Assembly: GCF_004010195.1 (NCBI RefSeq)
Contig: NC_057719.1
Coordinates: 1,193,941 to 1,239,816 of the forward strand
Source of the DNA: Chiloscyllium plagiosum
Lineage: Eukaryota
Length of the DNA: 45,876 nt
Direction: 5' to 3'
The translations under genes and the position numbers were made by a program. Below are positions 1 to 43,195 of the stretch, piece after piece; within the stretch, counting starts at the first letter, position 1, and each line of letters begins with the position of its first letter. The notes under the pieces are model-generated. The model made no database searches. It saw only the letters and a program-made list of their open reading frames with translations, and was not told the DNA's origin.

Positions 1-345
1 TGGACTTCAACAGCTTCCTCATTTCCCCTTCCCCCACCTCATCCTAGTTTCAAACTTCCAGTCCCCTTGACTTGTCCGGACTTGTCCGACCTGCCTAGCT
101 CCTTTTCCACCTATCCACTCCACCCTCTCCTCCCTGACCTATCACCTTCATCCCCTCCCCCACTGACCCATTGTACTCTATGCTACTCTCTCCCCACCCC
201 CACCCTCCCCAAGCTTATCTCTCCATGCTTCAGGCTCACTGCCTTTATTCCTGATGAAGGGCTTTTGCCCGAAACGTCGATTTTGCTGAAGCTCCTCGAT
301 GCTGCCTGAACTGCTGTGCTCTTCCAGCACCACTAATCCAGAATT
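1..345 (+). mobile_element. Penelope-like element 3' end/pLTR (family A)
   Basis: Begins in the '..DFNSF' tail typical of the PLE GIY-YIG C-terminus, followed by a pyrimidine-rich UTR, an HHR and a 'gatgctgcctga..ctgctgtgctcttccagcac' terminus shared with 28990 and 38130. Confidence 0.7.
247..282 (+). ncRNA. Minimal hammerhead ribozyme motif (family A), core intact
   Basis: uc-CUGAUGA-A-GGGC-uuuu-GCCC-GAA-ACGU-C|ga. Predicted cleavage is after 278. Confidence 0.75.
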
Positions 346-349
346 AGGT

Positions 350-570
350 TGTCATAGTCTTACCAGACCATAGGGGCTGCTCTCTTATTAGAGAGAAGTA
401 GCTGATGGTGATTTAACTGGAGGGCCACCAAACCCCAGGCAAGTGAGGAGGTTGAGAAGGAAAACCCTTCATGGTAACCTCAAACCAGTGATGGGAATTG
501 ACCCCATGCTCTTGGCATCACACTCCTCTACAAACCATCAATCCAGCCAACTGAGCTAAACCAATTCCCA
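350..570 (-). mobile_element. tRNA-derived SINE (non-HE1)
   Basis: The minus strand begins gggaattggtttagctcagttgg (A box), followed by gggtcaattccc (B-box-like). Confidence 0.55.
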
Positions 571-1157
571 GCATCATTATAGTGAATGAAATTTGAAGAG
601 AGAAAGACAATGAAGGTCAATTTTGTTTCCTATTCTTCTGATTTATTTCTTGGATTTTGCTCCTAGCAGTGACCAAATCAATCTTCGATTGCTGGAGACT
701 TCAGGGTTGGAGAGTTGGTAACTCTAGGATATGATGCTGCCATCCAGACCCTTTGGATCTATACTGTTTGATATTCTGCTGCAAATGTCATTTTTGATTT
801 TATAATTGTACTTTTTGCAGTTGATTGCAGCAGTACCTGCACATTGGGTCTGGAAGGATGACACAAACACACTTGAATTAGTCAGGTACGTGAATGAATC
901 TGTTCATACCAAAGACTACCCGCAGTGTTCCCCCTCTGTTGATGTGTTCAGTCAGTTGTTCTGGGAAAAGGCTAACTCAGATTGTACGCAGGTTCCTGCC
1001 CATAACCTGGTGAGCTCTGAAAGAAACAATTTATGTTCGAGGAGAGTCATAGAATCATAGAGCTATACAACATGGAAGCAGACACTCCAGTCCAACACAT
1101 CTATGCCAACCAGATATCCTAAATTTATCTAGAGTATTGGTGAACAAAGACGTACCT

Positions 1158-1190
1158 TGCAAAGCTTTTCATCTTGAACTTATCAGGACC
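1158..1190 (-). ncRNA. Degenerate HHR-like motif (family E)
   Basis: Reverse complement reads guc-CUGAUAA-guucaagau-GAA-AAGCUU-U. It is the inverted partner of 1596-1627. Confidence 0.35.
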
Positions 1191-1595
1191 ATACACAAGG
1201 ATACCAATGTACAGGGGAACAACCTTACGTACTGAATGAGAAAAGAGTGCTGGTTAGTTAGCAGATTGACTCTGATTGGTAGGAGCGGACCATTAAGCCC
1301 CTCAAACCTGCTTCACCATTTAATAAGATTATCGCTAATGTGCATTTTTCGAGTTAGAATTAGGTTTATTATCACGTTGTTCAAGCACAGGGATAAGCAA
1401 ATACAGTGAAAAGCGTACAAAATTCCGAATCCTGGCACCATTTTAGGTACAAAGATACCTCGATACAAAATCCAGTACAGTATGAAATGCTGGAGATCAC
1501 AGTGGGTCAGGCAGCATCCGTGGGGAGAGAGCAAGCTAACATCTTGAGTCTAGATGAAATTCCATTTCATTTGTCATTAGTGTTTCTTATGAATT

Positions 1596-1627
1596 ATCCT
1601 GATGAATTCAAGATGAAAAGCTTCACA
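1596..1627 (+). ncRNA. HHR-like motif (family E, hexamer palindrome)
   Basis: CUGAUGA-auucaagau-GAA-AAGCUU-C. Stem II is only about 2 bp. Confidence 0.4.
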
Positions 1628-1863
1628 AAGTACATTTTACTCAGCAATACTGAGTGCAGCAAGTGCTGCAGCAGTGAAGATGCAACGCCCTCTGCAACCA
1701 TGTCCTGGAGTGCTGGTTTGCTTCAGCAACATCAACGGTGTGGTGGACCTGGCCTGGAATGCTAACGGCCCGGGATTCCAACGTTCCGAATCGAGGTGAG
1801 TTCAGCCCAGAATTCCAATGGCCTAGGATAGCTTGAGGTGGCTTTTGTGGTGTCTTCCAGCCT

Positions 1864-4177: not shown

Positions 4178-4645
4178 GGTAACAGGAAGAAAGTTAGCCA
4201 CCAGGATACATGAACACTAGCTAGCCACACAAAAAGACATGACCCTCTCTCCCTCGTTGCCCTACACACGGAGGAAAAAAAACCCACCATTTTGACTGGG
4301 ACAACACATCTATCCTGGGACAGGCTAAGCAAAGACATGCCAGAGAATTCCTAGAGGCCTGGCAATCCAACCACAACGCCATAAACAAACACATAGATCT
4401 AGGTACCATCTATCAACCCCTCAGAAAACGAACAGGAAATGACATCACCACAAACCCCAGGAATCCCATCCAGGACAAACATATAAATAGAAAGGAGGAG
4501 ACAACAGCTTTGCTTCACTTGGAGGTCGCCACTGATGATGTTACCTAGCCAGGTAATGAAATGTCTGGATACCAATCCTACAGCTCAAAGAGCAAACCTA
4601 CACCCTAAACCTCAACATGAGCTACAAACCTTCACAAACCTTGCA
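4178..4645 (+). mobile_element. Penelope-like element 3' fragment (family C)
   Basis: GIY-YIG C-terminal remnant (TGRKLATRIHEH...HFDWDNTSIL), closely similar to 34915-35478, and carries an HHR. Confidence 0.8.
4529..4568 (+). ncRNA. Minimal hammerhead motif (family C)
   Basis: CCA-CUGAUGA-U-GUUACC-uagcca-GGUAAU-GAA-AUGU-C|UGG, with stem I CCA/UGG. Confidence 0.7.
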
Positions 4646-4674
4646 GTCACCCTACAAACTTGTATGTGTGTGTA

Positions 4675-6808
4675 CCCCACCACAAAAATGGATCCCATGA
4701 GTCTTGCAGCAGACACGGAGGACTTCATCAGAACGAATGAGGCTCCAGGAATTCTTTCAAGAAGCCAGCAGTGATCCCAGTGAGCCCACCGAGGAAGCAG
4801 AACAGTCATCAGAGATGTCTGTAGAGGAGTGACCAAAGAAGGAGTCAATTTGGACCCCACTGGAGGGCTGCCCTGGGTGTGACATGTGTGCTCAAACTGT
4901 CAGGAAATATATAAATGCCAGATGCATCAGCCGTACCCGTAAGGTAGAGCAAAACATCACCGGTTCACAACACAACACCATCCATGCTCTCAAAACCAAT
5001 CACAACATTGTCATCAAATCAGCAGATAAAGGAGGAGCCATCGTTATTCAGAATAGAACGGACTACTGCAAGGAAGTGTACCGACAACTGAACAACCAGG
5101 AACACTACAGGCAACTACCGGCTAATCCGACCAAAGAACACACCCGTGATCTAAACACATTGATCAGGAGTTAGGATCCAGTCCTTCAGGGTTCCCCACG
5201 CACTCTCATCCCACGTACTTCTCGCATAGGAGACTTCTATTGCCTTCCAAAATACATAAAGCCAACCCACCAGGACGTCCCATCCTATCAGGCAATTGGA
5301 CCCTGTGTGAGAATCTCTCTGGCTAGATCAAAGGCATCTTGAAACCCATTGTAGAGGGGACCCCAAGCTTCTGTCACAACACTACAGATTTCTTACAGAA
5401 ACTCAGCATTGCCCGGACCAGTCGAACCAGGAACATTCCTCGTCACAATTGATGTTTCAGCACCCTACAACAGCATCCTCCACAATGAAGGCATCACAGC
5501 AACAGCCTCAGTACTCAGTATCAACAACTGCCAATCTCCAAGCACCATCCTACAACTCCTCATCCGCTTTATCCTCAACCACAGCATTTTCACCTTTGAC
5601 AACCAGTAGTTCATCCAGATACATGGAACAGCCATGGGGACCAAATTTTCACCCCAATATGCCAACATTTTCATGCACAGATTCAAAAAAGTCTTCTTCT
5701 CTACGTAGGACCTCCAACCAACACCATATACCAAGTATATTGACGATAGTTATTTCCTCTGGACCCATGGTGAGGAGTCACTGAAACAACCACACAGTGA
5801 TATCAATGAGTTTCATCCCACCATCAGACTTACCATGGACTACTCTCTACTATCTGTCTCATTCTTGGACACATGCATCTCTAAGGATGGGCACCTCAGC
5901 ACCTCATTCTACCATAAACCCATGGATAACCTCACGATGCTGCACTTCTCCAGCTTCCACCCAAAACATATTAAAACAACGACCCCGAAAGACAAGCCCT
6001 ACGCATACACCGGATCTGTTCAGATGAGGAGGAACATGATGGGCAATTGGAAGTACCTACGGATGCCCTCATAAGAATGGAGTATGATGCTCAACTCATC
6101 GACCGCCAGTTCTGACATGCCACAGTGAGAAACCGTAATGACAGACACGAGCTGCAACCGACAGGGTACCCTTCATTGTCCGGTACTTCCCAGGAGCCGA
6201 AAAACTAAGCCATATTCTTCGCGGCCTGCAGCACATTATCAATGAGGATGAGCACATGACCAAGACCTTCCCTACACCTCCACTGCTCGCTTTTAAACAA
6301 CCACCAAACCTCAAACAGATAATTGGTCGTAGCAAACTGCCCAGCTTTCAGGACGATACCATACAAACTTGTCACGGTTGTGAGACATGTCAGAGTGTCA
6401 TCACAGGCAACACCATTACACGTGGGGACCCCTCCCACCATGTATATGGCAGGTACTCATGTGACTCGGCCAAAGTTGTCTGCAGGCAAGGATGCCCTGA
6501 GACATGGTACATTGGTGAGACCAAGCAGAGGCTACGGCAACGGATAAATGAACACCACACAGCTATCAACAGACAGGAGTGTTCCCTTCAAGTCAGAGAA
6601 CACTTCAGCGGTCCAGGACACTTGACCTTGGATCTTTGGGTGATCGTCCTCCAAGGCAGACTTCGAGACAGGCAACAACGCAAAGTGGCTGAGCAGAGGC
6701 TGATAGCCAAGTTCGGTACCCATGGGGATTGCCTCAACCCCAGAACCTCGGGTTCATGTCACACTACAAGTGACCCCTTTGCACTACGCACACAGAGACA
6801 TACACAGT

Positions 6809-6864
<56 letters not shown>

Positions 6865-7132
6865 TCCTACAGACCCAGACATTCACGCAGACCCTCTCTC
6901 ATACGTTCACACATGCACCCCCACACTCACACACCCTCTCACAAACCTGTGCCCCTTTACACTCACCCTCACGCACATGCACATACTCTCTCACAGACAC
7001 TTATACCCCGCTGTGCACACACACCCACATGCACGCACACACACACGTATAAGTTTGTGAAGTGAATTTGTACTTGCAGAATTGCATTTTATTTTGCTCA
7101 AAAACTGCGTGAATCCATGTAAGATTCTGTAA
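4675..7132 (+). mobile_element. Penelope-like element (family D), near full-length decayed RT + GIY-YIG ORF, 5' part
   Basis: Motifs IVIKSADKGGAIVI, FYCLPKIHK..PGRPI, LVTIDVSAPYNSI, GTAMG, KYIDD, SFLD and WYIGETKQRLRQRINEH, with multiple stops and frameshifts. A (CA)n-rich 3' UTR follows. Confidence 0.92.
6809..6862. repeat. (CA)n microsatellite in the PLE 3' UTR
   Basis: Seen directly in the sequence. Confidence 0.95.
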
Positions 7133-7734
7133 TTTTTTTTTTATTTCAAAAATATACTTTATTCATAAAATACTTTGATGATCTGTACAACTGGACATGC
7201 CATACATATGTAAACATTCCATTTGTTTGCATACCGAAAACAGAGTAATCATTCCTATTTACAGGTCTGTACAATTACATTTTTAGCTGAGGCGTCAGCA
7301 GAGCCCAAATTACTGCGTGGGCCCCTGTTCTTCTTCGTCAGGCAGATGTTACAAGGTGGTCTTTCCCCACCGCGCCTTGGGGCAGCTGCCCCAAGCTTCA
7401 GCGCCTCCCTCAACACGTAGTCCTGGACCTTGGAATGTGCCAGTCTGCAACACTCAGTCGGGGTCAACTCCTTCAGCTGGAAGATCAACAGGTTTCGGAC
7501 TGCCCAGAGAGCGTCCTTCACCGAGTTGGTGATCCTCCAGGCACAGTTGATGTTCGTCTAGGTGTGCGTCCCGGGGAACAGGCCGTAGAGCACGGAGTCC
7601 CGCGTCACGGCGCTGCTCGGGACGAACTTCGACAAACACCACTGCATTCCTCTCCAGACTTCCTCTGCGTAGGCACATTCCAGAAGGAGGTGTGTGACAG
7701 TCTCGTCCCCCCCGCAACCGCTTCGAGGGCAGCG
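7133..7734 (-). mobile_element. Tx1/L1-clade LINE 3' segment (ORF2 C-terminal Cys/His region, AATAAA, polyA)
   Basis: Minus strand reads RCPRSGCGGDETVTHLLLEC...KDALWAVRNLLIFQ...VQDYVLRE. A T-tract at 7133 abuts the TSD. Confidence 0.88.
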
Positions 7735-10695
7735 TAAACATTCACTGGCTTTGGCCTAACGCCAATTCAGGTACCAGCCAACCTCAGAGCTATGGTCTCA
7801 GCAGCCGCTTGTAGCCCAGGCCAGGGCATTCACAACACAGTCAGGGTGACTGTGAAGAAGGTGGAGGAGCACACAAGTCGATCGGACAGTGTTTGTGAAG
7901 ATTTTGCTGGAGTGCTGCGGGTTCGAAGCCGCGGACGTGTACTGCCTGCAGGATTTCCCTGCGGCAGGCTATTTCGATGTGACCTTCAGGAGTGTGAAGA
8001 ATTGCGAGCAGCTCCTGAAGGTCTTCAAGGAGAAGGAAGGGGAACCTCTGTTCTCCATCTTGTCGGCGGTCCCATTGTGTGTGCTTCCTGCGCAGAGGAG
8101 TCGGGTTGTAACAATCCAGATGTACAACCCTCACGTCCCAGCAGCAGATCTTGAAAAGATACGTCCAGGTCGAGGGAGAGAGTACCGATGTGGTCGATCC
8201 TTTCGGGATCTGAACCAGCAAACGACAGGTCAGGGTAACCCTGAGGGTCGATGCCAGTGGGAACATCCTCCACCCACCCTCCAGCTTTGCCATCGGAGGA
8301 AGCAGAGGTTACCGGACATACGCAGGGCAGCTGAAAGTGTGCTGTACCTGCGGGAGGTCAGGCCACATGGCGGCGGATTGTAAGGTGACCATCTGCCTAA
8401 ACTGCAAGCAGGAAGGCCACCCGACCAAGGAATGTAAGGAGGCCAAGAACTGCAATCTGTGCAGAGAGGCGGGCCACATGTACAAGGCCTGCCCAAGACG
8501 AGGGGCCGCCACCTAAGCACAGATGGCCGGAGGTGGCAACACGAGCCGTGGACCGCCTAAGACCAGCAAGGTACCACAAAACAGCACGGTGTCTGGAGGC
8601 ACCCAGAAGGAAGGGCAGGCTGTAGCGGAGCAGACGGCAGACAGCGGGGAGGTGCAGCAGCCGATCCAAGCTCCTTCAAGACAGACAGAGGAAATGGAAG
8701 AGAAGGGACCAAAGGAAGCAGAGGATTGGATTACTGTCAAAAGCAGGAAGAGGAAACCTCCCAAAGCCACCCAGCGAAGGGGGAAGCAACACCTACATGA
8801 CGAGGATACAGGCAGCTCTTCCGACGCTGAGAACGGGCGCAAGGAGGGTCATCACCAGAGGAAGAGACAGAGCGCCGTGGGGAAAAAGGAGGGCAGCACC
8901 GCCCAAGCATGGAAAGACGATCCCTCTGAGGGACAGGTAAAGCCCTCCCCCCACCCGGTGAGAACCAAGAGGTACCCACCGGCCCACAGCTCCAGGTAAC
9001 TGGGAGCAGCGGTCCTGTGACAGCCCCGCTGTCAGATGGAGAACTGGACTATACGGACCCTGGGCCTGACCCGAAGACACCAGAGCGGGGAAATGGCTCC
9101 AGCGTGGAGCCGGACAGCTACCTCAGCCCTGGGATGGTCCTGCAGTTTGCTGTCACCACGGGGATGCACACAGCTACCCCAGAGGGGCAAGACCAGCAGC
9201 AAACGGACAGTGTCAACCTTGTAAACTGTTAAAATGGGGTTAAAAATTGCCAGCATCAATGTGTGTAGCATCAAATCGGCTACGCGATGTGTTTCTACGA
9301 TGGCCTTCCTGGCCAACGTTAAAGCCGACGTCCTGTTCCTGCAGGAGTGTGGGATACCGCACCTCAGCAGCTACAGGAGATGGTCGAGCTTGTGGGCCCA
9401 TGGGCCATCAGTTTGGTCGGGGGGCAACAATAACCGCGCCTCCGGCNNNNNNNNNNNNNNNNNNNNNNNNNNNNNNNNNNNNNNNNNNNNNNNNNNNNNN
9501 NNNNNNNNNNNNNNNNNNNNNNNNNNNNNNNNNNNNNNNNNNNNNNNNNNNNNNNNNNNNNNNNNNNNNNNNNNNNNNNNNNNNNNNNNNNNNNNNNNNN
9601 NNNNNNNNNNNNNNNNNNNNNNNNNNNNNNNNNNNNNNNNNNNNNNNNNNNNNNNNNNNNNNNNNNNNNNNNNNNNNNNNNNNNNNNNNNNNNNNNNNNN
9701 NNNNNNNNNNNNNNNNNNNNNNNNNNNNNNNNNNNNNNNNNNNNNNNNNNNNNNNNNNNNNNNNNNNNNNNNNNNNNNNNNNNNNNNNNNNNNNNNNNNN
9801 NNNNNNNNNNNNNNNNNNNNNNNNNNNNNNNNNNNNNNNNNNNNNNNNNNNNNNNNNNNNNNNNNNNNNNNNNNNNNNNNNNNNNNNNNNNNNNNNNNNN
9901 NNNNNNNNNNNNNNNNNNNNNNNNNNNNNNNNNNNNNNNNNNNNNNNNNNNNNNNNNNNNNNNNNNNNNNNNNNNNNNNNNNNNNNNNNNNNNNNNNNNN
10001 NNNNNNNNNNNNNNNNNNNNNNNNNNNNNNNNNNNNNNNNNNNNNNNNNNNNNNNNNNNNNNNNNNNNNNNNNNNNNNNNNNNNNNNNNNNNNNNNNNNN
10101 NNNNNNNNNNNNNNNNNNNNNNNNNNNNNNNNNNNNNNNNNNNNNNNNNNNNNNNNNNNNNNNNNNNNNNNNNNNNNNNNNNNNNNNNNNNNNNNNNNNN
10201 NNNNNNNNNNNNNNNNNNNNNNNNNNNNNNNNNNNNNNNNNNNNNNNNNNNNNNNNNNNNNNNNNNNNNNNNNNNNNNNNNNNNNNNNNNNNNNNNNNNN
10301 NNNNNNNNNNNNNNNNNNNNNNNNNNNNNNNNNNNNNNNNNNNNNNNNNNNNAACATGGGAGAGGCTGGACCAGCTGCTATCTCTGGACGAGCTGACCAA
10401 GGTCCTCGAGTCCTTCGAAAAGAATAAAACTCCTGGAAGCGACGGCTTACCGGTCGAGCTCTATTCCGCTCTGTGGGACTTGATTGGCCAGGACCTGCTG
10501 GAGGTGTATGTCAGTATGCTTCGGGCAGGTACCATGAGTGAATCCATGAGGAAAGGCATCATCACCCTCATCTACAAGCGGAAGGGGGAGAGGGAGGAGC
10601 TCAAAAATTGGAGACCAATCTCACTGTTGAATGCGGATTACAAAATTCTGTCAAAGGTAATCGCCAACCGGGTCAGGTCTGCTCTGGGGTTGGTG
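7735..10695 (+). mobile_element. Tx1/L1-clade LINE 5' segment (inverted): ORF1 with three CCHC knuckles, ORF2 APE endonuclease and start of RT
   Basis: ORF1 starts at ATG 7792 and is frameshifted. It contains CCTCGRSGHMAADC, CLNCKQEGHPTKEC and CNLCREAGHMYKAC, with a stop at 9230-9232. ORF2 starts at ATG 9234: IASINV...DVLFLQE, then KTPGSDGLPVE...WRPISLLNADYKIL after the gap. Confidence 0.9.
9447..10352. other. Assembly gap (others at 15305-15804, 17528-18334, 36748-37247 and 37592-38004)
   Basis: Runs of N. Confidence 1.
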
Positions 10696-11092
10696 ATGTA
10701 AGATTCTGTAAATCCCTTTTTTAGATTAGAATCAGTCTGAACGTTGGGGCACAGACAGCCTCACACAGGGCACCTCACACCTTCAATGCATTATCTGGGC
10801 CAGTGTGGCCCCTATTGTTGAAGTTCACTTGAGAATGTAACTTTAAGAAATTTACATATGGAAGAACTGAAACAACATGCCCATTCTAAAAGATGAGAGA
10901 CTTAACAAACAACCCAGGTCTTTTTCAATATATAATTTCAGTTACATCACATTGTAAACTTTTGCTGTAAATTCTGTGTCCTACGATCTTATACTGCACA
11001 ACCACCTGATGAAGGAGCAGCGCTCCGAAAGCTCGTACTTCCAAATAAACCTGTTGGACTATAACCTGGTGTTGTGTGATTTTTAACTTTGT
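10696..11092 (+). mobile_element. Penelope-like element (family D) pLTR, continuation after the Tx1 insertion
   Basis: Resumes at the duplicated atgtaagattctgtaa and is colinear with the uninterrupted copy at 22060-22480. Confidence 0.92.
11003..11037 (+). ncRNA. Minimal hammerhead motif (family D), core intact
   Basis: CAC-CUGAUGA-A-GGAGC-agc-GCUCC-GAA-AGCU-C|GUA. Confidence 0.75.
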
Positions 11093-13174: not shown

Positions 13175-14445
13175 ATAAGATATAGGAGCGGTATTAGGCC
13201 ATTCAGCCCATCGACACTGCTCCACCATTCAGTCATGGCTGATACGTTTCTCATCCCCATTCTCCCATTTTCTCTCTGAAATCTTTGATCCTCTTACCAA
13301 TCAAAGACCTATTTCATAAATTACTGGAAAAGCTCAACTGTTCTTCTCTCTCTTTGGGCTCTATGTCCACTTATTGTTTACTCTTTACCCCCTTCCTCCA
13401 CCCTATCTTCTGCATATAAAACAACATTTTCCGTGCAGAGAAATCAGAGTTAACATTTTGGGTCCAGTGACCCTTCCTCAGAACTGGGTATGTTCGGAGG
13501 AACGGTCACTCGATCCGAAACATTAACTGATTTCTCTCCACAGATGCTGCCAGACCTGCTGAGCTTTTCCAGCAATTTCTGTTTTTGGTCCTTAACTACC
13601 TGTTGTTGTATGGAGGGATTTTCTTGCTGTATGGTTAATGGTTGTTTCACAGCTAATGAATGGGTTGGCCCGCACAGCCCTGTGTGATAATGAGTTCCAC
13701 AGGTTCACCACCCTCTGACTGAAGAAATTCCTCCTCACGACTGCTCTAAAGCATCATCCCTTCACTCTGAGGCTGTGCCATTAGGTCCCAGTCTCTCCTA
13801 CTAGTGGAAGCATCTTCTCCATGTCCACTCCATCCAGGCCTCTCAGTGTTCTAGAAGTTTCAATCAGATCCCCCTCACCTTTCTAAACTCCATTGAGTAC
13901 AGACTCACAGTCTTCAACTGCTCTTCATAGGACAATCCTTTCGTCCCCAGGAGTATTCTTGTAAATCTCCTCTGGACTCCCTCCAAGGCCAGCACATCCT
14001 TCCTTAGATATGAGGCCCATAACTGCTCAGAATATTCAAAACGTGGTCTGACCAGAGCCTTATACAGCCTCAGCAGTACATCTCTGCTCTTGAAATGAAT
14101 GCTAACATTGCATTTACCTTCCAAACTGCCGACCGAACCTGCATGTTAACCTTAAGAGAATCCTGAACAAGGACTCCCAAGTCCCTTTGTGCTTCAGATT
14201 TCCAAAGCCTATCCCCATTTCAAAACAACCTCTATTCTTCCTCCCAACGAGGACAACCTCACATTTTCTCACATTGAACTCCATCTGCCATTTCTTTGCC
14301 CAGTCTCCTAGCCTGTCCAAGTCCTTCTGCTGACTCCCCACTTCCTCAGTACTACCTGTCACTCCACGTATCTTTGTGGCATCTGAAAATATAGCAACAA
14401 TGACCTCAGTTTGTTTGTCCAGATCATGAATGTGTAACATGAATC
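13175..14445 (-). mobile_element. CR1 LINE 3' part, interrupted at about 13320-13670
   Basis: FSDATKI..DLDRLGDWAKKWQMEFNVRKC and LYKALVRPRFEYSEQLW..LEGVQRRFTR. Confidence 0.88.
13449..13527. ncRNA. Back-to-back pair of degenerate HHR motifs (family B)
   Basis: Minus 13449-13484: GUU-CUGAGGA-A-GGGUC-acug-GACCC-aAAAUGUU-AAC. Plus 13492-13527: GUU-CgGAGGA...GAAACAUU-AAC. Confidence 0.5.
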
Positions 14446-14964: not shown

Positions 14965-15260
14965 GGACCAAAAACAAATTTCTGGAAAAGCTCAGCAGGT
15001 CTGGCAGCATCTGTGGAGAGAAATCAGAATTAACGTTTTAGATCAAGTGACTCTTCCTCAGAACTGATGGTAGCGAGGAAAATGTTGCTTTATATGGAGA
15101 AGATAGGGTGGAGGAAGGGGGTAAAGAGTAAACAATAAGTGGACATAGAGCCCAAAGAGAGAGAAGAACAGTTGGACAGACAAAGGAGTGGATAATGATC
15201 CAGTTAGGAGGGTGAATAGCTGTTAATGGGGACTGTTAGTGTTGGTGGAGAGAATGAATG
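14965..15260 (-). mobile_element. Penelope-like pLTR (family B) with a degenerate HHR at 15029-15064
   Basis: Terminus cagatgctgccagacctgctgagc shared with 13540, 19900 and 31945. Confidence 0.65.
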
Positions 15261-16506: not shown

Positions 16507-16761
16507 TCCTCATTTTCTTCTGTTACCTCAGCATGCCGTGTACCTTTACAGATAAATGGTGCTTTTTTAAAGCGTGTGAAGATTTCTTGCGAGAGGCCGG
16601 TATTTCTTTCTCAGATTGCTCTTTGCTCTCACCCCTTCAGGTGGCAGTTAGCTCTCCCTGTCTGTCCAATTGCCCCTCTGTTATATACCTCACCCCCATG
16701 ACACATCAAACACTCCCGTTGAGCTATGGCGGGGTCTTACTCATTACTTCCTGTACTTTAG

Positions 16762-28049: not shown

Positions 28050-29305
28050 CCAAAAGCATTTCATGGCTGCTTTTTACCTTCCTAATTCTTTGTTTGAGTT
28101 ATTTCCTGCTTTCTTTCTTATTTAAGGACTCTGTCTGCCCTCAGTTTCTGAAACCTTACTGACTGAGCTCTCACCTTCTTGTCATCCAAGATTTCCGGAT
28201 CTTGCCATCCTTACAGAACATAGAACATATCCTTCATTTTCGCAGGAACATGCTGGTTCTGAACTCTAATCAACTGGCCTTTAAAAGATTCCCACTTGAT
28301 AGATTTGAATTTACCCTCAAACAGCTGCCCCCGCCTCCCCCAATCCACATTCCCCAGTTCCTGCCTAATATTGTTGTATTTAGCCTTGCCCCAATTTAAT
28401 ACTTTCACCTGAGAACTACTCTTTACCTTAACCATAAGTAACTTAAAACTTACAGAATTATGATTACTGTTCCCCCACTGAAACTTCGATCACCTGGCTG
28501 GGCTCTAGTCTGGCCTCTTTCCTGGTTGGACTATTTGCATGTTGTTTTAAGAAAACTATCCTGGACATACCTTACAAATTCTGCCCCGTCTGAGGCACCA
28601 TGTGAGTCTTATTTAAATATTGGGGAAGTTAAAATCCCCCTCCGCATCAACCCTGCTGTCTTTCCAGTTTTCCATTATCCTCCAACCACACTGCATCACC
28701 ATCGTCTTCACCAGTTTCCTCATCTCTCCTCCCCCCACTTCATCCCAGACCCAACCCTCCAACTTGGCACCGCTCTCTTGAATTGCCTCAACTGCCCTCT
28801 TCCTTCCCACCTATCCACTCCACCCTCCTCTCTGACCTATCACAATCATCCCCCCCCACCTTCATCTACCTATCGCCTTCCCAGCTACCTGCCCCAGCCC
28901 CACCTCCACCCTCCAATTTATCTCTCAGCCCCCTTCTCTACCCCAACATTCCTGATGAAGGGGTTCTGCCCGAAACATCCATTCTCCTGCTCCTCGGATG
29001 CTGCCTGACCTGCTGTGCTTTTCCAGCACCACACTCTCGACTCTGACTCTCCAACATCTGCAGTCCTCTCTTTCTCCATTTTTTCCACAGTCTGTCCACA
29101 GATCTGTTCCTCCATTTCCCATTGGTTGTTGGGAGGCCTGTTGTACAGCCCCATCAAAGTGATTGCAGCCATCCGACTGCTGAGCTCTATCCATAATGCC
29201 TTACAGGATGAGCCCTCCAAGATGTCCTCCCTCAGTACAGCTCTGACATTCTCCCTCATCAGTACCGCACCTCACCTACGCCCCTCTCTATCTCGCCTGA
29301 AACAT
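28050..29305 (-). mobile_element. CR1 ORF2 endonuclease region, interrupted by a PLE
   Basis: ALWIEL..ITLMGLYNRPPN, GDFNFPNI and VKVLNWGKAKYNNIRQEL. Confidence 0.8.
28680..29077 (+). mobile_element. Penelope-like pLTR (family A) with an HHR at 28948-28982
   Basis: CUGAUGA-A-GGGG-uucu-GCCC-GAA-ACAU-C, followed by the family A terminus. Confidence 0.75.
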
Positions 29306-30820: not shown

Positions 30821-30925
30821 GGAGAAAGTGAGGACTGCAGATGCTGGAGATCAGAGCTGAAAATGTGTTGCTGGAAAAGCGCAGCAGGTCAGGCAGCATC
30901 CAAGGAGCAGGAGAATCGACGTTTC
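30821..30925 (-). mobile_element. PLE family A terminus truncated within the HHR
   Basis: Near-identical to 37460-37565. Only CGAAACGUC of the ribozyme remains. Confidence 0.75.
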
Positions 30926-31883
30926 GTCGCAAATCAGGAGCTGCAGCTGAACACACTTCCTGTTTACGGAGTCACCATGGAGACTGGGAGTGTCCCTGTT
31001 TTCCCACCTGGTGCAGGAGGAGTCGTCCCATAGGGTTGGGTTCTCCATGATCCTTACAGATGACAGACAGCCCTCGAGGAACTGATGACACGCCCTTTCC
31101 CACTTGTCACCAAACTCTGGCCTCTCACTCCCGTTGTGTATTCTAAGCAGACTACGCCCACAGAAAGTCAGCACTTTATCCCACTCCAGATACTCAGTCT
31201 GCAAACCTGGTTCCTGAGCAACCAAGCCTATACCCATAATCCCCCTCAGTCATGGTGGATAAGCCAACTTCTCCCAGAATCCTCCTCAGTTGCCCGCTCA
31301 ACCCAGACCCCTCAGGTAAACTCCACCTGGACCTGAAAAATTGTCAGTCCCCACCAATTCCCTGGTGATTGCAATTTCACCGAGTTTCCCTTCTTCCTTC
31401 AACCCTCCAGATTTTCAGATATTAGTGATTTGTATCCTCTATGGTGAAGACAAAATGCAAAATATTTATTCATTGCATCTGCCATTTCCTTACTACTGCA
31501 TTCTCAGTCCCTGGAGAACCAGCATTCACTTTACTTTCCTGTTTATTTTGGCAACGTTTGCTGGCAACCGTCAACTTTGGGCAACTTATTCACACGTGCT
31601 AACCCGGAAACACCAACACGCATGTTCCAGACATTACATCAGCACATAGAACACACATGAGGTAGCACACATAAACACTGCACTGCGCACCCGCACTGAG
31701 ATGGGATTTGGTGGCAGGGAGTTAGGATGTGGGCGGTGGGACTCTGAGGGAGAGCAGAGAATCGGATTGGGGGGAGGGGAGAGTGAATCATGGGGTTTGG
31801 CAGGGAGGGGGTGAGTGAGAATGGGGGTGGGAGGTGCTGCAAACACAGCCTTCTCTTTTCAGAAACTTGTGGAAGCACTTACT

Positions 31884-32010
31884 GAGTTCTGAAGAAGGGT
31901 CACTGAACTCGAAATGTTAACTCTGCTTTCTCTCCACAAATACTGCCAGACCTGCTGAGTTTCTCCAGCAATTTTGTTTCAGATTCCCAGCATTTGTAAT
32001 TCTTTGTTTT
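31884..32010 (+). mobile_element. PLE family B terminus starting at an HHR (31884-31923)
   Basis: GAGUU-CUGAAGA-A-GGGUc-acug-aACUC-GAA-AUGU-U|AACUC, with a 5-bp stem I. Confidence 0.7.
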
Positions 32011-34165: not shown

Positions 34166-34671
34166 TGGTCACAATAATGAGGGTTGTGATAGTAGAAGCT
34201 TTCAACTTTAGAGTGAGACTGCCAGTGTTAAGGGCTTGGATGGGGAGAAATTTCTTAAATGTGTTCAAGAAAATTTTCTTTATCAATATGTATCTCCTAG
34301 AGAAGGAGCAACACTTGACCATCTCTTGGAAAATAAGACAGAGCAGGTGGCTGAAGTATTAGTGGGGGAGCACTTTGGGACCAGTGGTCATAATCCTATT
34401 ACTTTTACAATAGTTATGGAAAAGGACAAGCCTTGTATTGAAGTTCTAAACTGAAGGCCACGTTTTGCTCCTTCTGTAGTCGGGTACCTATTGATTAAAC
34501 AAGTCCAATTTGATGGTACCAGACAGGAACATTCAGAAGTTAATTGGGGAGGCTGTTCGCAGGTCAAGGAATGACTGGTGAGCGGTAGGTTTTCAAAAGT
34601 GAGATAACAAAAGTTTTGAGACTGCATGTTCCTGTTAAAGTGAAGGACAAATATGATAGGAGTAGGGAACA

Positions 34672-35476
34672 AGTTTTGAGAAGATTTGTAGCTCAGGTTG
34701 AGGTTCTGGATGTGGGCTTGCTCGCTGAGCTGGAGGGTTCATTTCCTGGCATCATTGCCAGACTACTCAGACCTCTTGGCATCATGGTAGCCCACAAACC
34801 CACCAACACACTAAAACAGCAGCTAATGAACTTGAAAGACCCTATACAGACAACAAGCAAAACTAATGTCATTTACAAAATACCGTGCAACGACTGTAAC
34901 AAACACTACATTGGACAAACAGGAAGAAAACTAACCACCAGGCTACATGAACACCAACTAGCCACGAAAAGACATGACCCTCTCTCACTAATATCCTCAC
35001 ATACAGATGAGGAAGGACACCACTTCGATTGGGACAACACAAACAGAGAGATGCACGAGAAATCCTAAAAGCATGGCATTCCAACCAGAACTCTATCAAC
35101 AAACACATTGAGTTAGACCCCATCTACCACCCCCTGAGAAAAGGAACAGGAAATAGCATCACCCACAGGAAATAATGTCACCAGCCCAAGGAAACCCAAA
35201 CACATAAATAAAAAGTGGGCCATACCACCAGTGCTTCATCTGGAGGCTCACTGATGATGTTACCTAGTATGGTGACGAAACACCCCTGAGAAAAGGAACA
35301 GGAAATAGCATCACCCACAGGAAATAATGTCGCCAGCCCAAGGAAACCCAAACACATAAATAAAAAGTGGGCCATACCACCAGTGCTTCAGCTGGAGGTT
35401 CACTGATGATGTTACCTAGTATGGTGACGAAACATCTGAAAATGGACCTTTCAGCTCAGCGAGCAAACCTACATCC
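34672..35476 (+). mobile_element. Penelope-like element (family C): inverted 5' pLTR piece, GIY-YIG and tandem HHR repeats
   Basis: 14-bp TSD aggagtagggaaca at 34658-34671 and 35477-35490, and NVIYKIPCNDCNKHYIGQTGRKLTTRLHEH. The segment 34705-34744 is inverted relative to 35440-35478. Confidence 0.92.
35399..35440 (+). ncRNA. Minimal hammerhead motif (family C); a truncated sister copy lies at 35248-35282
   Basis: UUCA-CUGAUGA-U-GUUACC-uaguau-GGUGAC-GAA-ACAU-C|UGAA, with a 4-bp stem I. Confidence 0.72.
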
Positions 35477-37259
35477 AGGAGTAGGGAACACTGGATGACT
35501 AGAGATAATGGGGCTGTGGTCAACAAAAGGAACAGGTATATGTCAGGTATAGATACCTGGGATCAAGTGAAGCCCTTGAGGAATATAAGAGGAGTACAAG
35601 TACACTAAAGAGGGAAATCAAGAGGCAAACATTGGATAACAGATTGCTTTGGTCGATAAGGCAATGGAGAATCCAAAGAGAATTTTCAAATATATTAAAA
35701 GTGTTACTAGGGAGAGAATAAGGACCATTTAAGGTCAATGATGCCATCTATTTGTGGAACCACAGGAGATGGGAGAGATATTAAGTAAGTATTTTGCTTT
35801 GGTATTTACTGTGGAGAAAGACATGGAAACTAGGGAAACTGAAGGAAATAAATTGTGATGTCTTGAAAAGAGTCCTTATTACAGAAGAGGAAGTGCTGGA
35901 GGTGTTAATGCATAAAGGTAGTAAATCCCCAGGACCTGATCAAGTGTCTCCCAGGACATTGTGAGAAGCTAGGGAAGAAATTGTAGGGCCCATAGCAAAG
36001 GTATTTGTATCATTGACAGCTACAGGTGAGGTGGCCAGTATTGTGCCATTATTAAAGAAAGGCAGCGAATATAGATCAGTGAGCCTGACATCAATGATGG
36101 GTACGTTGTTGGAGGGGATTCTGAGGGACAGGATTTACATGCACTTGGAGAGGCAAGGACTGCTTAGGGATAGTCAACATTGCTTTGTGCTTGGGAAATT
36201 GTGTCTTACAAATTGGACGGAGTTTTTTGAGGATGTGACCAACAAGACGGATGAGGATGGAGCAATATACTTTGTCTAAGTGTGCTAGCAAGGTCTTTGA
36301 CAGGGTTCTGCATGGTTGACTGTTTAGTAAGGTTAAATCACATGGGATCCAGGAGGAGCTAGCCAATTGAAGACAAAATTGACTTGACAGTAGGAGACAG
36401 ATGGTTGTGGGTAGTGAGTTGTTTTTGGTCTGGACATCTATGACCAGCCGAATTCCTCAAGGGTCAGAGCTGGACCCACTGTTGTTTGTAATTTATTTAA
36501 ATGGGTGAGAATATAGGAGGCATGGTTAGTAAGCCTTCAGATGACACCAAAATTAGTGGGATAGTGGGCAGTGAAGAAGGTGATCTAAGAGTACAACAGG
36601 ATCTTGATCAGTTGGGCCAATGGGCCAAGGAGTGACAAATGGAATTTAATTTACATAAATGTGCAGTGTTGCATTAAGGTAAGACAAACCAGGTCAGGAC
36701 TTAGACAGTTACTGGTAGGGCCCTGGGGAGTGTTGTTAAACAGAGGGNNNNNNNNNNNNNNNNNNNNNNNNNNNNNNNNNNNNNNNNNNNNNNNNNNNNN
36801 NNNNNNNNNNNNNNNNNNNNNNNNNNNNNNNNNNNNNNNNNNNNNNNNNNNNNNNNNNNNNNNNNNNNNNNNNNNNNNNNNNNNNNNNNNNNNNNNNNNN
36901 NNNNNNNNNNNNNNNNNNNNNNNNNNNNNNNNNNNNNNNNNNNNNNNNNNNNNNNNNNNNNNNNNNNNNNNNNNNNNNNNNNNNNNNNNNNNNNNNNNNN
37001 NNNNNNNNNNNNNNNNNNNNNNNNNNNNNNNNNNNNNNNNNNNNNNNNNNNNNNNNNNNNNNNNNNNNNNNNNNNNNNNNNNNNNNNNNNNNNNNNNNNN
37101 NNNNNNNNNNNNNNNNNNNNNNNNNNNNNNNNNNNNNNNNNNNNNNNNNNNNNNNNNNNNNNNNNNNNNNNNNNNNNNNNNNNNNNNNNNNNNNNNNNNN
37201 NNNNNNNNNNNNNNNNNNNNNNNNNNNNNNNNNNNNNNNNNNNNNNNGATGGGTTTTGC

Positions 37260-37456: not shown

Positions 37457-38170
37457 AGAGGAGAAAGTGAGGACTGCAGATGCTGGAGATCAGAGCTGAA
37501 AATGTGTTGCTGAAAAAGCGCAGCAGGTCAGGCAGCATCCAAGGAGCAGGAGAATCGACGTTTCGGGCATGGGCCCTTCATTCCTGAAGAANNNNNNNNN
37601 NNNNNNNNNNNNNNNNNNNNNNNNNNNNNNNNNNNNNNNNNNNNNNNNNNNNNNNNNNNNNNNNNNNNNNNNNNNNNNNNNNNNNNNNNNNNNNNNNNNN
37701 NNNNNNNNNNNNNNNNNNNNNNNNNNNNNNNNNNNNNNNNNNNNNNNNNNNNNNNNNNNNNNNNNNNNNNNNNNNNNNNNNNNNNNNNNNNNNNNNNNNN
37801 NNNNNNNNNNNNNNNNNNNNNNNNNNNNNNNNNNNNNNNNNNNNNNNNNNNNNNNNNNNNNNNNNNNNNNNNNNNNNNNNNNNNNNNNNNNNNNNNNNNN
37901 NNNNNNNNNNNNNNNNNNNNNNNNNNNNNNNNNNNNNNNNNNNNNNNNNNNNNNNNNNNNNNNNNNNNNNNNNNNNNNNNNNNNNNNNNNNNNNNNNNNN
38001 NNNNNTCGCATTCCCCACGCCCCTCCCCCAAGTCCCTCCTCCCTACTTTTTATCTAGACGTTTCGGGCATGAGCCCTTCATTCCTGAAGAAGGGCTCATG
38101 TCCGAAACGTCGATTCTCCTGCTCCTTGGATGCTGCCTGACCTGCTGCGCTTTTCCAGCAACACATTTTC
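37457..38170. mobile_element. PLE family A insertion with inverted termini spanning a gap
   Basis: 13-bp TSD aacaaaggattta at 37444-37456 and 38171-38183. Confidence 0.8.
38081..38114 (+). ncRNA. Minimal hammerhead motif (family A), core intact
   Basis: uuc-CUGAAGA-A-GGGC-ucau-GUCC-GAA-ACGU-C|ga. Confidence 0.72.
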
Positions 38171-39904: not shown

Positions 39905-40135
39905 AACATCAGAACATGGAGCATAGACCATTACAGCGCAGTACAGGCCCTTCGGCCCTCAATGTTGCGCTGGCCTGTGGAACCAATCTGAAGCCCAGCT
40001 AACCTACACTATTCCATTATCATCCATCTGTCTGTCCAATGAACATTTAAATGCCCTTAAAGTTGGTGGGTCTACTACTGTTGCAGGCAGTGCTTTCCAT
40101 GCCCTTACTGAGTAAAGAAACTACCTCTGACACTA
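39905..40135 (-). mobile_element. CR1-type 3' tail fragment
   Basis: acaggcccttcggccctc...catttaaatgcc resembles the other CR1 ends. Confidence 0.6.
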
Positions 40136-40378
40136 TGAATGTTTGAAGTATCCTTCACCATAAAAACTGTTTAACTCCTTTGCCATTTCCTTGTTCCCCA
40201 AAACTTCTCCCCAAATGCATTATCTAAAAGGCCGACATTAACTTTGATCTTTCTCTTGCTTTCATTAATATTTAAAGGAGCTTCTGTTGTGAGTTTTTAT
40301 ATTCCTTGCTAATTTGCCCTCAACGTTTATTTTCTCTCTCTTTACTATCTGTTTAGTTCTGCTAGATTCTGAATTTAT

Positions 40379-41151
40379 TTACAGACAAAGAAAACTGCAG
40401 ATGCTGGAATCCACAGTAGACAGGCAGGAGGCTGGAGGAACACAGCAAGCCAGGCAGCATCAGGAGGAACAGGCAGGAAGCTAGGGGAACACAGCAAGGC
40501 AGGCAGCATCAGGAGGGACAGGCAGGAGGCAGGAGGCTGGAGGAACACAGCAAGCCAGGCAGCAACAGGAGGGACAGGCAGGAGGCAGGAGGCTGGAGGG
40601 CTGGGAAGGGAGTTGGGGGATGGGAAGGGAGGTTATTTGAAATTGGAAAACTCAATGGGTTCGTCCGGGCTGTAGACCAGTCTGACCTCCCAGTCACCAC
40701 CCATTTTAATTCCCACTCCCATTCCATGACCATCCTTGGCCTCCTCCATTGCTGCAGTGAATCTGACCTCAAATTGGAGGAACAACACCTCATCTTCCGC
40801 CTGGGCAGCTTACAGCCCGGAGGGCTCAACATTGAGTTCTCCAATTTCAAGTAACCTCCCTTCCCAGCCCCTCCCCCTTCCACTCCTCTGACCAACCCTT
40901 CCTTCCAGTCACCAACCGGATTCATTCCTTCCATCAACCAACCAGGTTGTACCCTCTACCTGTCTTCACCTATTCCCCACCTCACCACCCTGGCCCTCTC
41001 CCCATACATTACCCTTCCTTCCTCCCACCCCCTTTATCTGCAGCTCCCTCTACACCCACCCCCAGTACTGAAGAAGGGTTACACCTGAAACATTGACTTC
41101 TCCACCTCCAGATGATGCCTGGCGTGCTGTGTTCTTCCAGCCTCCTGTTTG
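40379..41151. mobile_element. Penelope-like remnant with inverted termini and a degenerate HHR at 41065-41097
   Basis: TSD gattctgaatttat/gattctcaatttat, and KLEEQHLIFRLGSLQPGGLNIEFSNF on the + strand. The left terminus is tandemly reiterated at 40420-40600. Confidence 0.8.
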
Positions 41152-41424
41152 GATTCTCAATTTATCCCAATCCTCAGGGCTATCACTGACTTTTACCTCC
41201 TTAGCTTTTTCTCAACTGAATACTCTCCTTCACTTCCTTGGTTAGCCATGATTGAGTTTACCCCTGTCTTAAAAATTTCCCTCATTCCTGGGAAGTATTT
41301 TTGCTTGAATTACCTCCTTCAATATCTACCACGACTTTGCTACTGTCCTTCCTGCTAATCTATCCACCCAGTTCACTTTAGTTAACTCTACCCTCATCTC
41401 AAAGTAAAACTCCCTTTTCTCAAA

Positions 41425-42980
41425 GAGTCATACAGAAACTGGCCCTTCAGCCCCTCTCCTCCATACTGATCAGGTTTCCTAAACTGAACGAGTCCCATTA
41501 GCCCATATCCCTCTAAACCTTTCCTCTCCATTTCCCTGTCCAACTATCTTTTAAAAGTTGTAATTGTACCAACCTCCATCATTTCCTCTGACAGCTCATT
41601 CCATACACGCACCACCCTCTCTGTGAAAAAGTTGTCCCTTAAGTCTCTTTTGATCTTTCCCTTCTCACCTTAAACTTATGCCTTCTAGTTTTGGACTCCC
41701 CTGCCCTCAAGCAAAGACTTTTACTATTGTTATTATCTCGGCCAATTATGATTTTATAAACCTCTGTAAGGTCAGCCCTCAGCCTCTGGTGCTCCAGGGA
41801 AAACAGCCCCAGCCTATCTAGCCTCTCTTTTAACTCCAGTTTCAGTAACATCCATGTAAATCTTTTTTGCATCTTTTCCAGTTTAGTAACATTCCTCCTA
41901 TCGCAGAGCGACCAGCATTGTACACAGTACCCCCAGTATGGCAACTAGTACTGTGACTGGTGAAAGTGAGCGTGTCAAATACCTTCCTAACCACCCTGTC
42001 TACTAATGATGCCACCTTCAAGTAACCCTGGGTCCCTCTGTTCAACAACACTCCCAAAAATCTTTACCATTAACTGTGTAAGTCCTGCCCGGTTTGACTT
42101 ACCAAAATGCAACACATCACATTTTTAAAAATTAAACTTAAGTTAAACACAGTTGTTTCCCACCCAAGTTTCTCACTCTCAACCTGAATATTAAATGCTA
42201 TTAATTTATGATAACTGCTTCCTAGAGGATCTTTTACTTGGTGGTCATTTGTTCAACCCAACTCATTACCTATTACCAGATCCAGAATCGTGCTTGGCTT
42301 CATGACACATTGCTCTCGGAAACTATCACTAATACACACTTCGATTTCCAGTCTGATTAGCCCAATCAATATGAACACTGAATTGACCCATAATTATTGC
42401 TCTATTCTTTTCACAAGCTCCTATTATTTGATAATTGATATCCTTTCCCACAGAGTGGCTACTGTTTGGGGGTTTTCCTATCACAGCATCCTTTCCTTTG
42501 CTGTTTTGTACCTCTACCCAAACAGACTCCATCATCCAAGCCTAGATCATCTCTCAGAACTGTCCTCATTTCATCTCTTATTATCACTGCTACCCCTCCA
42601 GCCTTTCTATCCTTTCTGGGTCTCTGAAAGGTCACATATCCCTGAATGTTAAGTTCCCAATTTCAATCCCCTTTGTAACCAAGTTTCTGCTATCAGGGAT
42701 TGTATTCATTTATTCCAATTTGCTCCATCAGTTTGTCTACCTTATTCCGAATGTTCCGTGTCATGTGATAGACCTTTCCTCGCCATATACCCACCCAGAT
42801 GCCTTGTAAATGCTGTAATTGTACCAGTCTCCACACTTCCTCTGGCAGCTCATTCCGCACACACACCACCCTCTGCGTGAAAATGTTGCCCCTCAGGTCC
42901 CTTTTAAACCTTTCCCTGTCACCTTAAACCTATGCCCTCTACTTTCTACTGTATAGAAAAGATCTTGGCTATTCACCTTA
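41425..42980 (-). mobile_element. Cluster of CR1 fragments (3' end, EN region, 3' tail)
   Basis: YCVQCWS..KLEKMQKRFT..RLGLFSLE and MESVWVEVQNSKG..PPNS..IIMGQF. Confidence 0.8.
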
Positions 42981-43061
42981 TCCATTCCCCCCCAACAAAG
43001 TCTTTGCTCTGTTATTGAGTTTCCCTGCATTTTTATGTTTTCTTAGTCCAACATAACATTC

Positions 43062-43195
43062 TGGGAGAAAAAGTGGACTGCAGATGCTCGAGATCAGAGT
43101 CAAAATGTGTTGTGCTGGAAAAGCACAGCAGGTCAGGCAGTATCCGAGGAGCAGGAGAGCCAACGTTTCGAGCATTAGCTCATATTCCTGATTAA
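43062..43195 (-). mobile_element. PLE family A terminus with a decayed HHR
   Basis: ggagaaaaagtggactgcagatgctcgagatcagagtc...aacgtttcgagc. Confidence 0.7.

Follow-up and report, generated by a model that had tools for sequence, protein, structure and literature searches.

Putative minimal hammerhead ribozymes near the 3' ends of Penelope-like elements, at very high copy number in the shark Chiloscyllium plagiosum

The stretch of DNA considered here (the window) comprises 45,876 bases of the genome of the shark Chiloscyllium plagiosum (NCBI RefSeq assembly GCF_004010195.1, contig NC_057719.1, positions 1,193,941 to 1,239,816 of the forward strand), including 3,127 N in five runs, and the nearest database proteins to its reading frames are all from sharks. 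Scattered through it are copies of four repeat families, referred to below as A to D and delimited by BLAST of the window against itself together with genome searches, which bear a hammerhead ribozyme (HHR) motif at 23 sites, one of them in an old relative of family A. Judged from sequence, these motifs are very probably minimal type-I hammerheads (min-HHRs) lying near the 3' ends of Penelope-like elements (PLEs) of at least four lineages. The copies in the window are 5'-truncated, are frequently arranged head to head and are decaying relics in which CpG sites have been lost first. An earlier sequence-only reading had claimed about 20 CUGANGA...GAAA motifs in this DNA; every coordinate that it listed corresponds to a real motif or to a decayed copy of one, but three truncated copies (30926, 37584 and 38057) had been missed and only 11 of the approximately 23 sites are intact on paper.

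Both catalytic boxes are intact at 13 sites, starting at 251, 4532, 11006, 16501 (minus strand), 19862, 20116 (minus strand), 26359, 28952, 31889, 35251, 35403, 38084 and 41068. Eleven of these copies also retain the U-H cleavage site, which is gone from the copies at 19862, through a 19-nt deletion, and at 35251, which lies at the junction of a tandem duplication. The boxes are mutated in six further copies, namely those at 13481 on the minus strand (G12A), 13495 on the plus strand (U4G), 15061 on the minus strand (G12A), 19411 on the minus strand (G5A, G12A), 22393 on the plus strand (U4C) and 26260 on the minus strand (CUGA to CCAA); most of these changes are transitions such as G12A and U4C, the U4G at 13495 being a transversion. 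Four minus-strand copies (30926, 37584, 38057-38081 and 43189) are truncated within the motif.

The loose pattern CTGANGA-N6-30-GAAA is matched 16 times on the two strands of the whole window, where 3.89 matches are expected (standard deviation 1.83, largest 9), and none of 100 dinucleotide shuffles reached 16. Three of the matches are not of the Penelope type, these being the doubtful site at 1599 and the overlapping matches at 19812 and 19817 on the minus strand, which have neither a stem II nor repeat relatives. A fuller descriptor, which demanded both boxes, a stem II of at least 3 bp (with the first base optionally unpaired) and U-H after 0 to 6 nt, returned ten sites, nine on the plus strand (251, 1599, 4532, 11006, 28952, 31889, 35403, 38084 and 41068) and one on the minus strand (20116), against an expectation of 0.125 (standard deviation 0.35, largest 2) that none of 200 first-order Markov shuffles raised to 10. 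The 312,358 bases made up of the window and 85 loci fetched for repeat copies contain 102 core-intact motifs, with 0.9 expected. Over the whole assembly (3.56 Gb in 101,977 contigs), strict family patterns are matched exactly 80,723 times for family A, 15,205 times for B, 1,836 times for C and 282 times for D, a sum of 98,046, and reversed-pattern controls gave no genomic match for any family.

The catalytic boxes are the only sequence common to all of the families, and the stems around them differ while still pairing, as had been claimed for four or five families. Stem II is GGGC/GCCC in family A (4 bp), GGAGC/GCUCC in B (5 bp), GUUACC/GGUGAC in C (6-7 bp) and GGGUC/GACCC in D (5 bp), and stem I is UC/GA in A, CAC/GUG in B (3 bp), UCA/UGA in C (3-4 bp) and (C/G)AGUU/AACUC in D (4-5 bp). 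All of the pairs quoted in the sequence-only reading are present, both for stem II (GGGC/GCCC, GGGUC/GACCC, GUUACC/GGURAY and GGAGC/GCUCC) and for stem I (CAC/GUG, CCA/UGG, UUCA/UGAA and GAGUU/AACUC, a list that did not include the UC/GA of family A). An unpaired base follows A9 in every copy of families A to D, being U in family C and A in the other three, and a base between A9 and 10.1 is lacking only at site 1599. The place of helix III is taken by the palindrome ACGU in families A, C and D and AGCU in B, with ACAU and AUGU in CpG-decayed copies (family C often has ACAU); given the fixed A15.1 and U16.1, such a palindrome would be met by chance about once in four for each independent family. 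The palindromes proposed earlier are thereby borne out for ACGU, AGCU and the CpG-decayed forms, whereas AAGCUU occurs only at the doubtful site 1599 and in the mutated minus-strand copy at 26260. Intact copies retain the U-H cleavage dinucleotide, and the invariant bases are precisely those that make up the catalytic boxes. In all families, 75-125 nt separate the motif from the 3' end of the repeat. The best genomic copies are 87-92% identical for family A, 93-97% for B (the youngest), 87-90% for C and 85-94% for D. A downstream segment is common to A and D, with which B and C share only the ribozyme boxes.

Family B provides the most complete view of an element. A broken, near-full-length PLE of the B lineage lies at 4884-7132 on the plus strand and comprises a reverse transcriptase (RT) and GIY-YIG endonuclease (EN) frame at 4884-6738, CA-rich sequence behind it and the initial portion of the 3' untranslated region (UTR), the rest of which, at 10696-11092, contains the HHR at 11006-11034 (GGAGC/GCUCC, AGCU). 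A shark protein of 643 aa (P0002; RVT_1 at 183-309 and a GIY-YIG-type C-terminus) aligns to the frame through its residues 1-633 with 62-66% identity, and in the translation of this single frame, in which RT is followed by GIY-YIG, YIDD and CxxCxxC...YIGET are visible. The frame is a dead copy, since it has six in-frame stops and two frame changes. The Pfam GIY-YIG model scores 14.8 bits on 6142-6760 (E 0.036; cut-off 22.6), and a lizard relative (P0012) passes that cut-off; among 25 long frames of the window searched with Pfam, no PLE domain scored above threshold. The 3,563 bp at 7133-10695 that separate the two parts of the UTR are a nested insertion, as indicated by a 16-bp direct repeat on both sides (7117-7132 and 10696-10711). 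This insertion includes 906 N, begins with a T run and carries a plus-strand frame (7856-8380) that matches the first RNA-binding domain of ZCCHC3 (PF23057, E 5.6e-14).

A second B-lineage unit, at 20034-22513, consists of two arms that join head to head at 20980|20981. The minus arm (20034-20980) extends from the EN coding region to the 3' end without a tail and bears an intact HHR at 20088-20116 (CAC/GUG, GGAGC/GCUCC, AGCU, A17), with AAUAAA at 20078-20073; the plus arm (20981-22513) has an HHR starting at 22393 (U4C) and ends in a 34-nt tail (22480-22513). The 11-bp target duplication GAACTGAAATA at 20023-20033 and 22514-22524 flanks the whole unit, which is therefore regarded as the product of one insertion event. 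Inverted 5'-truncated partners and a tail of 30-40 bp at one end are described for PLE insertions in PMC8557442. A CA-rich (His-Thr) stretch follows the EN coding region at 6760-7060, 20482-20660 and 21660-21990 and belongs to the element rather than to the target, because it is found in all three B-lineage copies. Three smaller family B pieces are present at 26175-26263 (minus strand, core CCAA), 26305-26353 (minus strand, 3' part only) and 26348-26445 (plus strand, HHR at 26359 with the 10.1-11.1 pair broken); the last two make up a hairpin.

Family C is represented by two plus-strand copies. The older, at 4181-4605, comprises the end of a GIY-YIG coding region, UTR and tail, with an HHR at 4532-4565 (GUUACCU/AGGUAAU, CCA/UGG and the CpG-decayed palindrome AUGU). 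In the other, a 3' end at 34589-35480, the motif follows a GIY-YIG-like frame (34589-35065; a weak Pfam match, E 0.0035), after which a 152-nt segment is duplicated in tandem (35131-35282 and 35283-35434, 98% identical); the HHR at 35251 ends prematurely at the junction between the two units and that at 35403-35436 is intact (UUCA/UGAA, GUUACC/GGUGAC, ACAU). For family A, an RT/EN-like frame precedes a copy at another genomic locus (L038) by about 400 nt, and family D is linked to PLEs only via the downstream segment that it has in common with A. The Penelope origin proposed earlier is thus supported by the RT and GIY-YIG frame before a B motif, the GIY-YIG-like frame before a C motif, and the target duplication with a one-sided tail.

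The frame at 4884-6738 is flanked by a family C motif upstream (4532) and a family B motif downstream (11006), the family C unit and the B-lineage RT-EN frame sharing a strand and standing about 320-350 nt apart (4532-4884). At locus L081 (1501-3095), a C unit is similarly found about 900 nt upstream of RT-like hits. Such C units may be upstream pseudo-long terminal repeats (pLTRs), or may reflect PLEs landing beside PLE ends. The 152-nt duplication is the only direct hammerhead tandem in the window, and its junction falls 2 nt before the predicted cleavage site, with 2-3 nt of microhomology; its interpretation as the mark of a ribozyme cut was rejected, as the case stands alone and no direct tandem is present at any of the 28 other C loci.

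The family A copies are short. That at 247-333 on the plus strand has an HHR at 251-278 with CUGAUGA, the unpaired A, GGGC/GCCC, GAAA, ACGU and C17 (56.5 bits with the covariance model described below), and upstream of it lie about 240 nt of older homology in common with 28706-28945. The copy at 28946-29077 (plus strand, HHR 28952-28979) has the CpG-decayed palindrome ACAU and has lost stem I, and that at 16377-16507 (minus strand, HHR 16474-16501; 46.7 bits) has an intact core and one mismatch in stem II (GGAC/GGCC). A head-to-head pair at 38057-38165 combines a minus arm (38057-38081) truncated at about A6 of the core with a plus arm whose HHR (38084-38111, GGGC/GUCC) is intact. The remaining minus-strand copies are 30821-30926, 5'-truncated at the GAAA box; 37460-37591, truncated at about A6 of the core and adjoining an inverted head fragment and an N run; and 43054-43212, with stem II GAGC/GCUC, truncation near A6 and a 9-nt inverted head fragment on the plus strand. 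The old relative of family A, at 41062-41101 on the plus strand, has its HHR at 41068-41094 (GGGU/ACCU, ACAU; E 0.018), and the segment that follows this hammerhead recurs at 40383-40674 as several short partial copies, both inverted and direct.

Family D includes a head-to-head pair at 13433-13584, with HHRs starting at 13481 (minus strand, G12A) and 13495 (plus strand, U4G), and two minus-strand copies, at 14972-15067 (HHR start 15061, G12A) and 19340-19417 (core decayed by G5A and G12A). Of its two single plus-strand copies, that at 19856-19928 has intact boxes and the 19-nt deletion, which removes helix III and the 3' strand of stem I, and that at 31883-31979 has an HHR at 31889-31918 (GAGUU/AACUC, GGGU/ACUC, AUGU; 43.4 bits).

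Site 1599 belongs to a small fifth repeat family (E) of about 100 nt, for which a first look gave 124 candidates and to which loci L091-L098 also belong; the window copy, on the plus strand at 1575-1655, has a hammerhead-like string at 1599-1624 with AAGCUU at helix III. Of nine copies that were aligned, most retain CUGAUGA and AAGCUU and four have a broken GAAA box; stem II is only 2-3 bp and the G10.1-C11.1 pair is absent. The string reported at this site earlier is therefore present and its status as a hammerhead doubtful (stem II of 2-3 bp, no G10.1-C11.1 pair): the likeness may be fortuitous, or the family may be a strongly reduced relative of hammerheads.

As MAFFT, aligning all four families, shifted family B by one column at the GAAA box, covariation was tested on A, C and D only, with 27 copies (26 distinct rows). 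Paired cells amount to 81.7% in these 26 rows and to 22.5-40.9% when the partner column is slid by 1-3 columns; helix I cells are 66.2% paired, the two inner helix I pairs covary between families, both-sided changes occur in 7 of 11 pairs, and the 10.1-11.1 pair is G-C in 20 rows and G-U in 6. The covariation score is 0.593, compared with 0.206 in shuffles, and none of 500 shuffles reached the observed value. Fifteen window sites score at E below 0.05 with a covariance model trained on A, C and D. Within families, positions of the core are more uniform (0.971/0.975/0.947) than other non-CpG positions (0.863/0.899/0.913) and CpG positions are the least uniform (about 0.75), a pattern that fits selection on source elements followed by neutral decay of their copies.

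RNA evidence is available for family B. Run X21, a single-cell library primed on poly(A) and labelled as the same species, of which about 2% was read, placed 2,317 reads on 19950-20950; run X22, from the same sample, placed none and so provides no test. Over 20052-20119 the depth is about 1,200, with most reads in an orientation fitting element-sense RNA, and T runs before 20058 (603 reads) and 20061 (452 reads), part of each T run deriving from the primer, correspond to poly(A) on the element strand. These junctions lie 12-15 nt past the AAUAAA at 20078-20073, which itself follows the predicted cut (after A17, at 20088) by about 10 nt. Genomic copies end at about 20034-20037 and so run 21-27 nt beyond the RNA poly(A) ends; among DNA contigs of run X15, 220 end at 20037 and 7 at 20061, and the genomic sequence beyond the poly(A) junction is not A-rich. 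Because the DNA ends elsewhere and no A-rich sequence lies beyond, 20058 and 20061 are read as real poly(A) sites. Polyadenylation of family B transcripts 12-15 nt after the AAUAAA that follows the ribozyme motif is a new observation. AAUAAA or AUUAAA is retained at this place in 39 of 54 B copies, 4 of 70 A copies, 2 of 40 C copies and none of 15 D copies.

Two minor features of the same reads may be added. A CA insertion behind 20084 is present in 442 of 1,721 RNA reads and in about 0.1% of DNA contig depth, and expression therefore comes mainly from a minority subfamily or a few loci. The fall in depth at 20120 was rejected as an RNA 5' end, as the clipped parts of the reads (at 20119 and 20128) are, by eye, diverged homologous upstream sequence from another B subfamily.

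PLE min-HHRs are described as having one base left unpaired behind A9, G10.1 paired with C11.1, a helix II whose length is given as 4-7 or 4-8 bp, a short helix I (given as 4-5 or 2-5 bp) and a palindrome at 15.2-16.2, and such ribozymes have been reported in fishes, coelacanth, Xenopus and reptiles (PMC4209133). The shark motifs resemble these in their type-I boxes, the unpaired base between A9 and 10.1, G10.1-C11.1, a long helix II and a palindrome instead of helix III, as well as in the presence of several families per genome with compensatory changes, the link with RT and GIY-YIG, and copies that are mostly solo with some on opposite strands 100-700 bp apart. Families A to D do not form a new kind: their motif features match the min-HHRs described in 2014 (PMC4209133), and they are the PLE min-HHR association already described, seen in a shark at very high copy number. 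They differ from the described cases in their cartilaginous fish host, in the poly(A) signal directly behind the family B motif and in scale, the 98,046 exact intact motifs from four strict patterns being about ten times the largest quoted count (about 9,000 for Xenopus tropicalis, with about 4,000 for coelacanth, both from another and looser descriptor; PMC4209133). A literature search on PLE hammerhead ribozymes in sharks found no specific report, and one on Penelope polyadenylation or transcription start in virilis found nothing relevant. Dimeric PLE hammerheads were reportedly treated by Lunse et al. in 2017.

Closer comparison is possible with PAc (Poseidon) of Anolis carolinensis, in which reverse transcription starts 111-118 nt past the start of the HHR-bearing open reading frame (ORF), according to PMC11167929. 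The shark copies are like PAc in a hammerhead about 110-120 nt upstream of the copy end, an optional tail and the absence of RNA-seq reads that end at the cut site, and the priming of PAc on both DNA strands fits the head-to-head pairs seen here. They are unlike it in that the PAc ORF starts inside the hammerhead (PMC11167929), whereas no long frame starting there was found in families A to D. The family A motif was considered as an ORF start and rejected, since a frame opened at the AUG of CUGAUGA meets a stop after 17 codons when the majority line is read by eye, and CUGAAGA is present in many copies. Also at variance with PAc, the RNA 3' ends of family B (20058 and 20061) differ from the ends of its genomic copies (about 20034-20037). 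Animal non-LTR retrozymes and the satellite hammerheads of newt and Schistosoma, as presented in PMC7229834 and preprint 10.64898/2026.07.22.740005, likewise have type-I hammerheads with a weak palindromic helix III, and retrozymes, like the shark repeats, include short non-autonomous units related to PLE pLTRs (10.64898/2026.07.22.740005). By these accounts, however, retrozymes form tandem arrays with canonical loop-loop contacts and circular RNAs, whereas the shark copies are dispersed singles or inverted pairs. The preprint's survey of PLE-derived retrozymes includes one cartilaginous fish.

In active elements, the motif would act on the element's own RNA, with self-cleavage after H17 when two copies pair via the helix III palindrome. 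This scheme comes from the literature, in which PLE min-HHRs are thought to cleave as dimers. Several results weigh against the reading of the shark motifs as PLE min-HHRs. Stem I of family A consists of two contiguous pairs (UC/GA) and one beyond a U-U mismatch. No direct pLTR pair of one family surrounds an ORF in the window. None of 102 family A hits or 22 family D hits starts at the expected end of the 3' cleavage product. Minimum free energy folding and cofolding of seven copies gave mostly stem II hairpin-hairpin duplexes rather than helix III pairing, which was seen for the D copy at 31889 and partly for the A copy at 38084, and for no others; this outcome is not decisive. Covariation across families was recovered in the score for A, C and D and not in the count of both-sided changes, as 480 of 500 shuffles reached the observed 7; the 97.6% pairing of helix II cells is partly circular, because the descriptor that selected the rows demanded stem II pairing; and only three or four independent lineages stand behind the test. 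The A/C/D covariance model scores family B at 8.6-12.1 bits, below significance, and the shared signal is therefore small, consisting of the boxes and the general shape. Rfam returned no hammerhead match at the gathering score or at E up to 10, either over the whole window or over the 81 nt at 20060-20140, the Rfam hammerhead families having the catalytic boxes in common with the motifs here and no score match. The Rfam models (Hammerhead_1 RF00163, Hammerhead_3 RF00008, HH9, HH10 and Hammerhead_II) expect a helix III and longer helices. Finally, depth in X21 is 1232.7 and 1181.5 on the two sides of the predicted cut, with no pile of read ends listed; the equal depth indicates that the RNAs sampled were uncut, and it is no evidence against cleavage, because a poly(A)-primed library could not capture the short 3' piece.

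A possible alternative to ordinary PLE ends, though not the favoured one, is that the short A and D units of about 95-130 nt are self-contained non-autonomous retroelements resembling retrozymes or SINEs, copied by the reverse transcriptase of a PLE from a short RNA that would begin at the ribozyme. Repeat families were followed through 248 hits in the 312,358 bases of the window and fetched loci, 85 of these hits being the copies on whose account the loci had been fetched. In 59 of 102 A hits and 13 of 22 D hits the start is no more than a few bases from the helix I 5' edge, BLAST boundaries being accurate only to a few bases, and the conserved part of 70 A copies starts about 5 nt ahead of CUGA. 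Among 30 complete short A units, 4 are flanked by direct repeats of 9-14 bp, compared with 1.4% of controls having a repeat of at least 8 bp; the other 26 have no clear target duplication. The 80,723 fully intact A motifs in the genome also speak for such a unit, and a derivation of animal non-LTR retrozymes from PLE pLTRs is put forward in preprint 10.64898/2026.07.22.740005. Against it, about a dozen A copies have an upstream extension of about 240 nt and the L038 copy lies behind its RT/EN-like frame, for which reason the short form could be a strong-stop truncation product. Head-to-head pairs number 35 among the 248 hits (22 in A, 8 in B, 4 in D and 1 in C), with arm ends and spacers that vary.

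It is also conceivable, and rather improbable, that the motif is kept for a role other than cleavage, such as recognition by RT/EN or handling of the RNA 3' end, and that the shark versions are poor ribozymes or none. The undiminished depth of RNA reads across the predicted site and the absence of genomic copies that start there would suit this explanation, as would the low in vitro activity of metazoan min-HHRs (PMC4209133) and, in PMC11167929, the lack of effect of HHR mutants on PAc insertion in vitro and of RNA-seq ends at the cut site. It accounts less well for invariant bases that coincide exactly with the catalytic boxes and for the U-H kept in intact copies; the reads, moreover, are silent on cleaved RNA, since a poly(A)-primed library cannot catch a short 3' product, and the PAc hammerhead does cleave, its C3G/G8C mutants behaving as for a true ribozyme (PMC11167929). 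That the matches are chance pairs of short boxes in repeat-rich DNA is almost certainly wrong: two or three of the 16 loose matches (19812/19817 and perhaps 1599) may be so explained, near the 3.9 expected, but for families A to D chance is refuted by the shuffles (0 of 100 and 0 of 200), by the recurrence of the motif, with stems that pair, at a constant position in four repeat families, and by reversed-pattern controls giving 0 where the genome gives 282 to 80,723 matches.

A further and fairly speculative proposal, which is more doubtful than otherwise, concerns the origin of some 10^5 intact motifs. The ribozyme-headed A stub of about 130 nt might have propagated itself as a non-autonomous element, with an RNA starting at the 5' edge of the ribozyme, and in family B cutting and polyadenylation might be alternative fates of the same transcript, giving either a poly(A)+ message or a tail-less RNA. 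Were this true, these repeats would be a natural setting in which to study the purpose of PLE hammerheads. The layout of ribozyme, AAUAAA and poly(A) site in family B provides a concrete place at which the cutting of a PLE hammerhead could be tested in vivo.

For genome annotation, the stubs of 95-130 nt and the hairpin pairs should be masked as PLE ends, and hairpins such as that at 26300-26439 should not be annotated as microRNA precursors. That region gave the only notable sub-threshold Rfam match, on the minus strand, to the MIR860 precursor (32.3 bits, with a gathering score of 89), and a MIR860 gene was rejected because the hairpin is formed by two inverted family B copies. Towards the end of the window, at 44074-45789 on the plus strand, lies a LINE-type element in which a frame with an AP-endonuclease domain (PF14529, E 7.4e-8) is followed by a frame, extending in the direction of the window end, with an RT domain (PF00078, E 8.5e-28).

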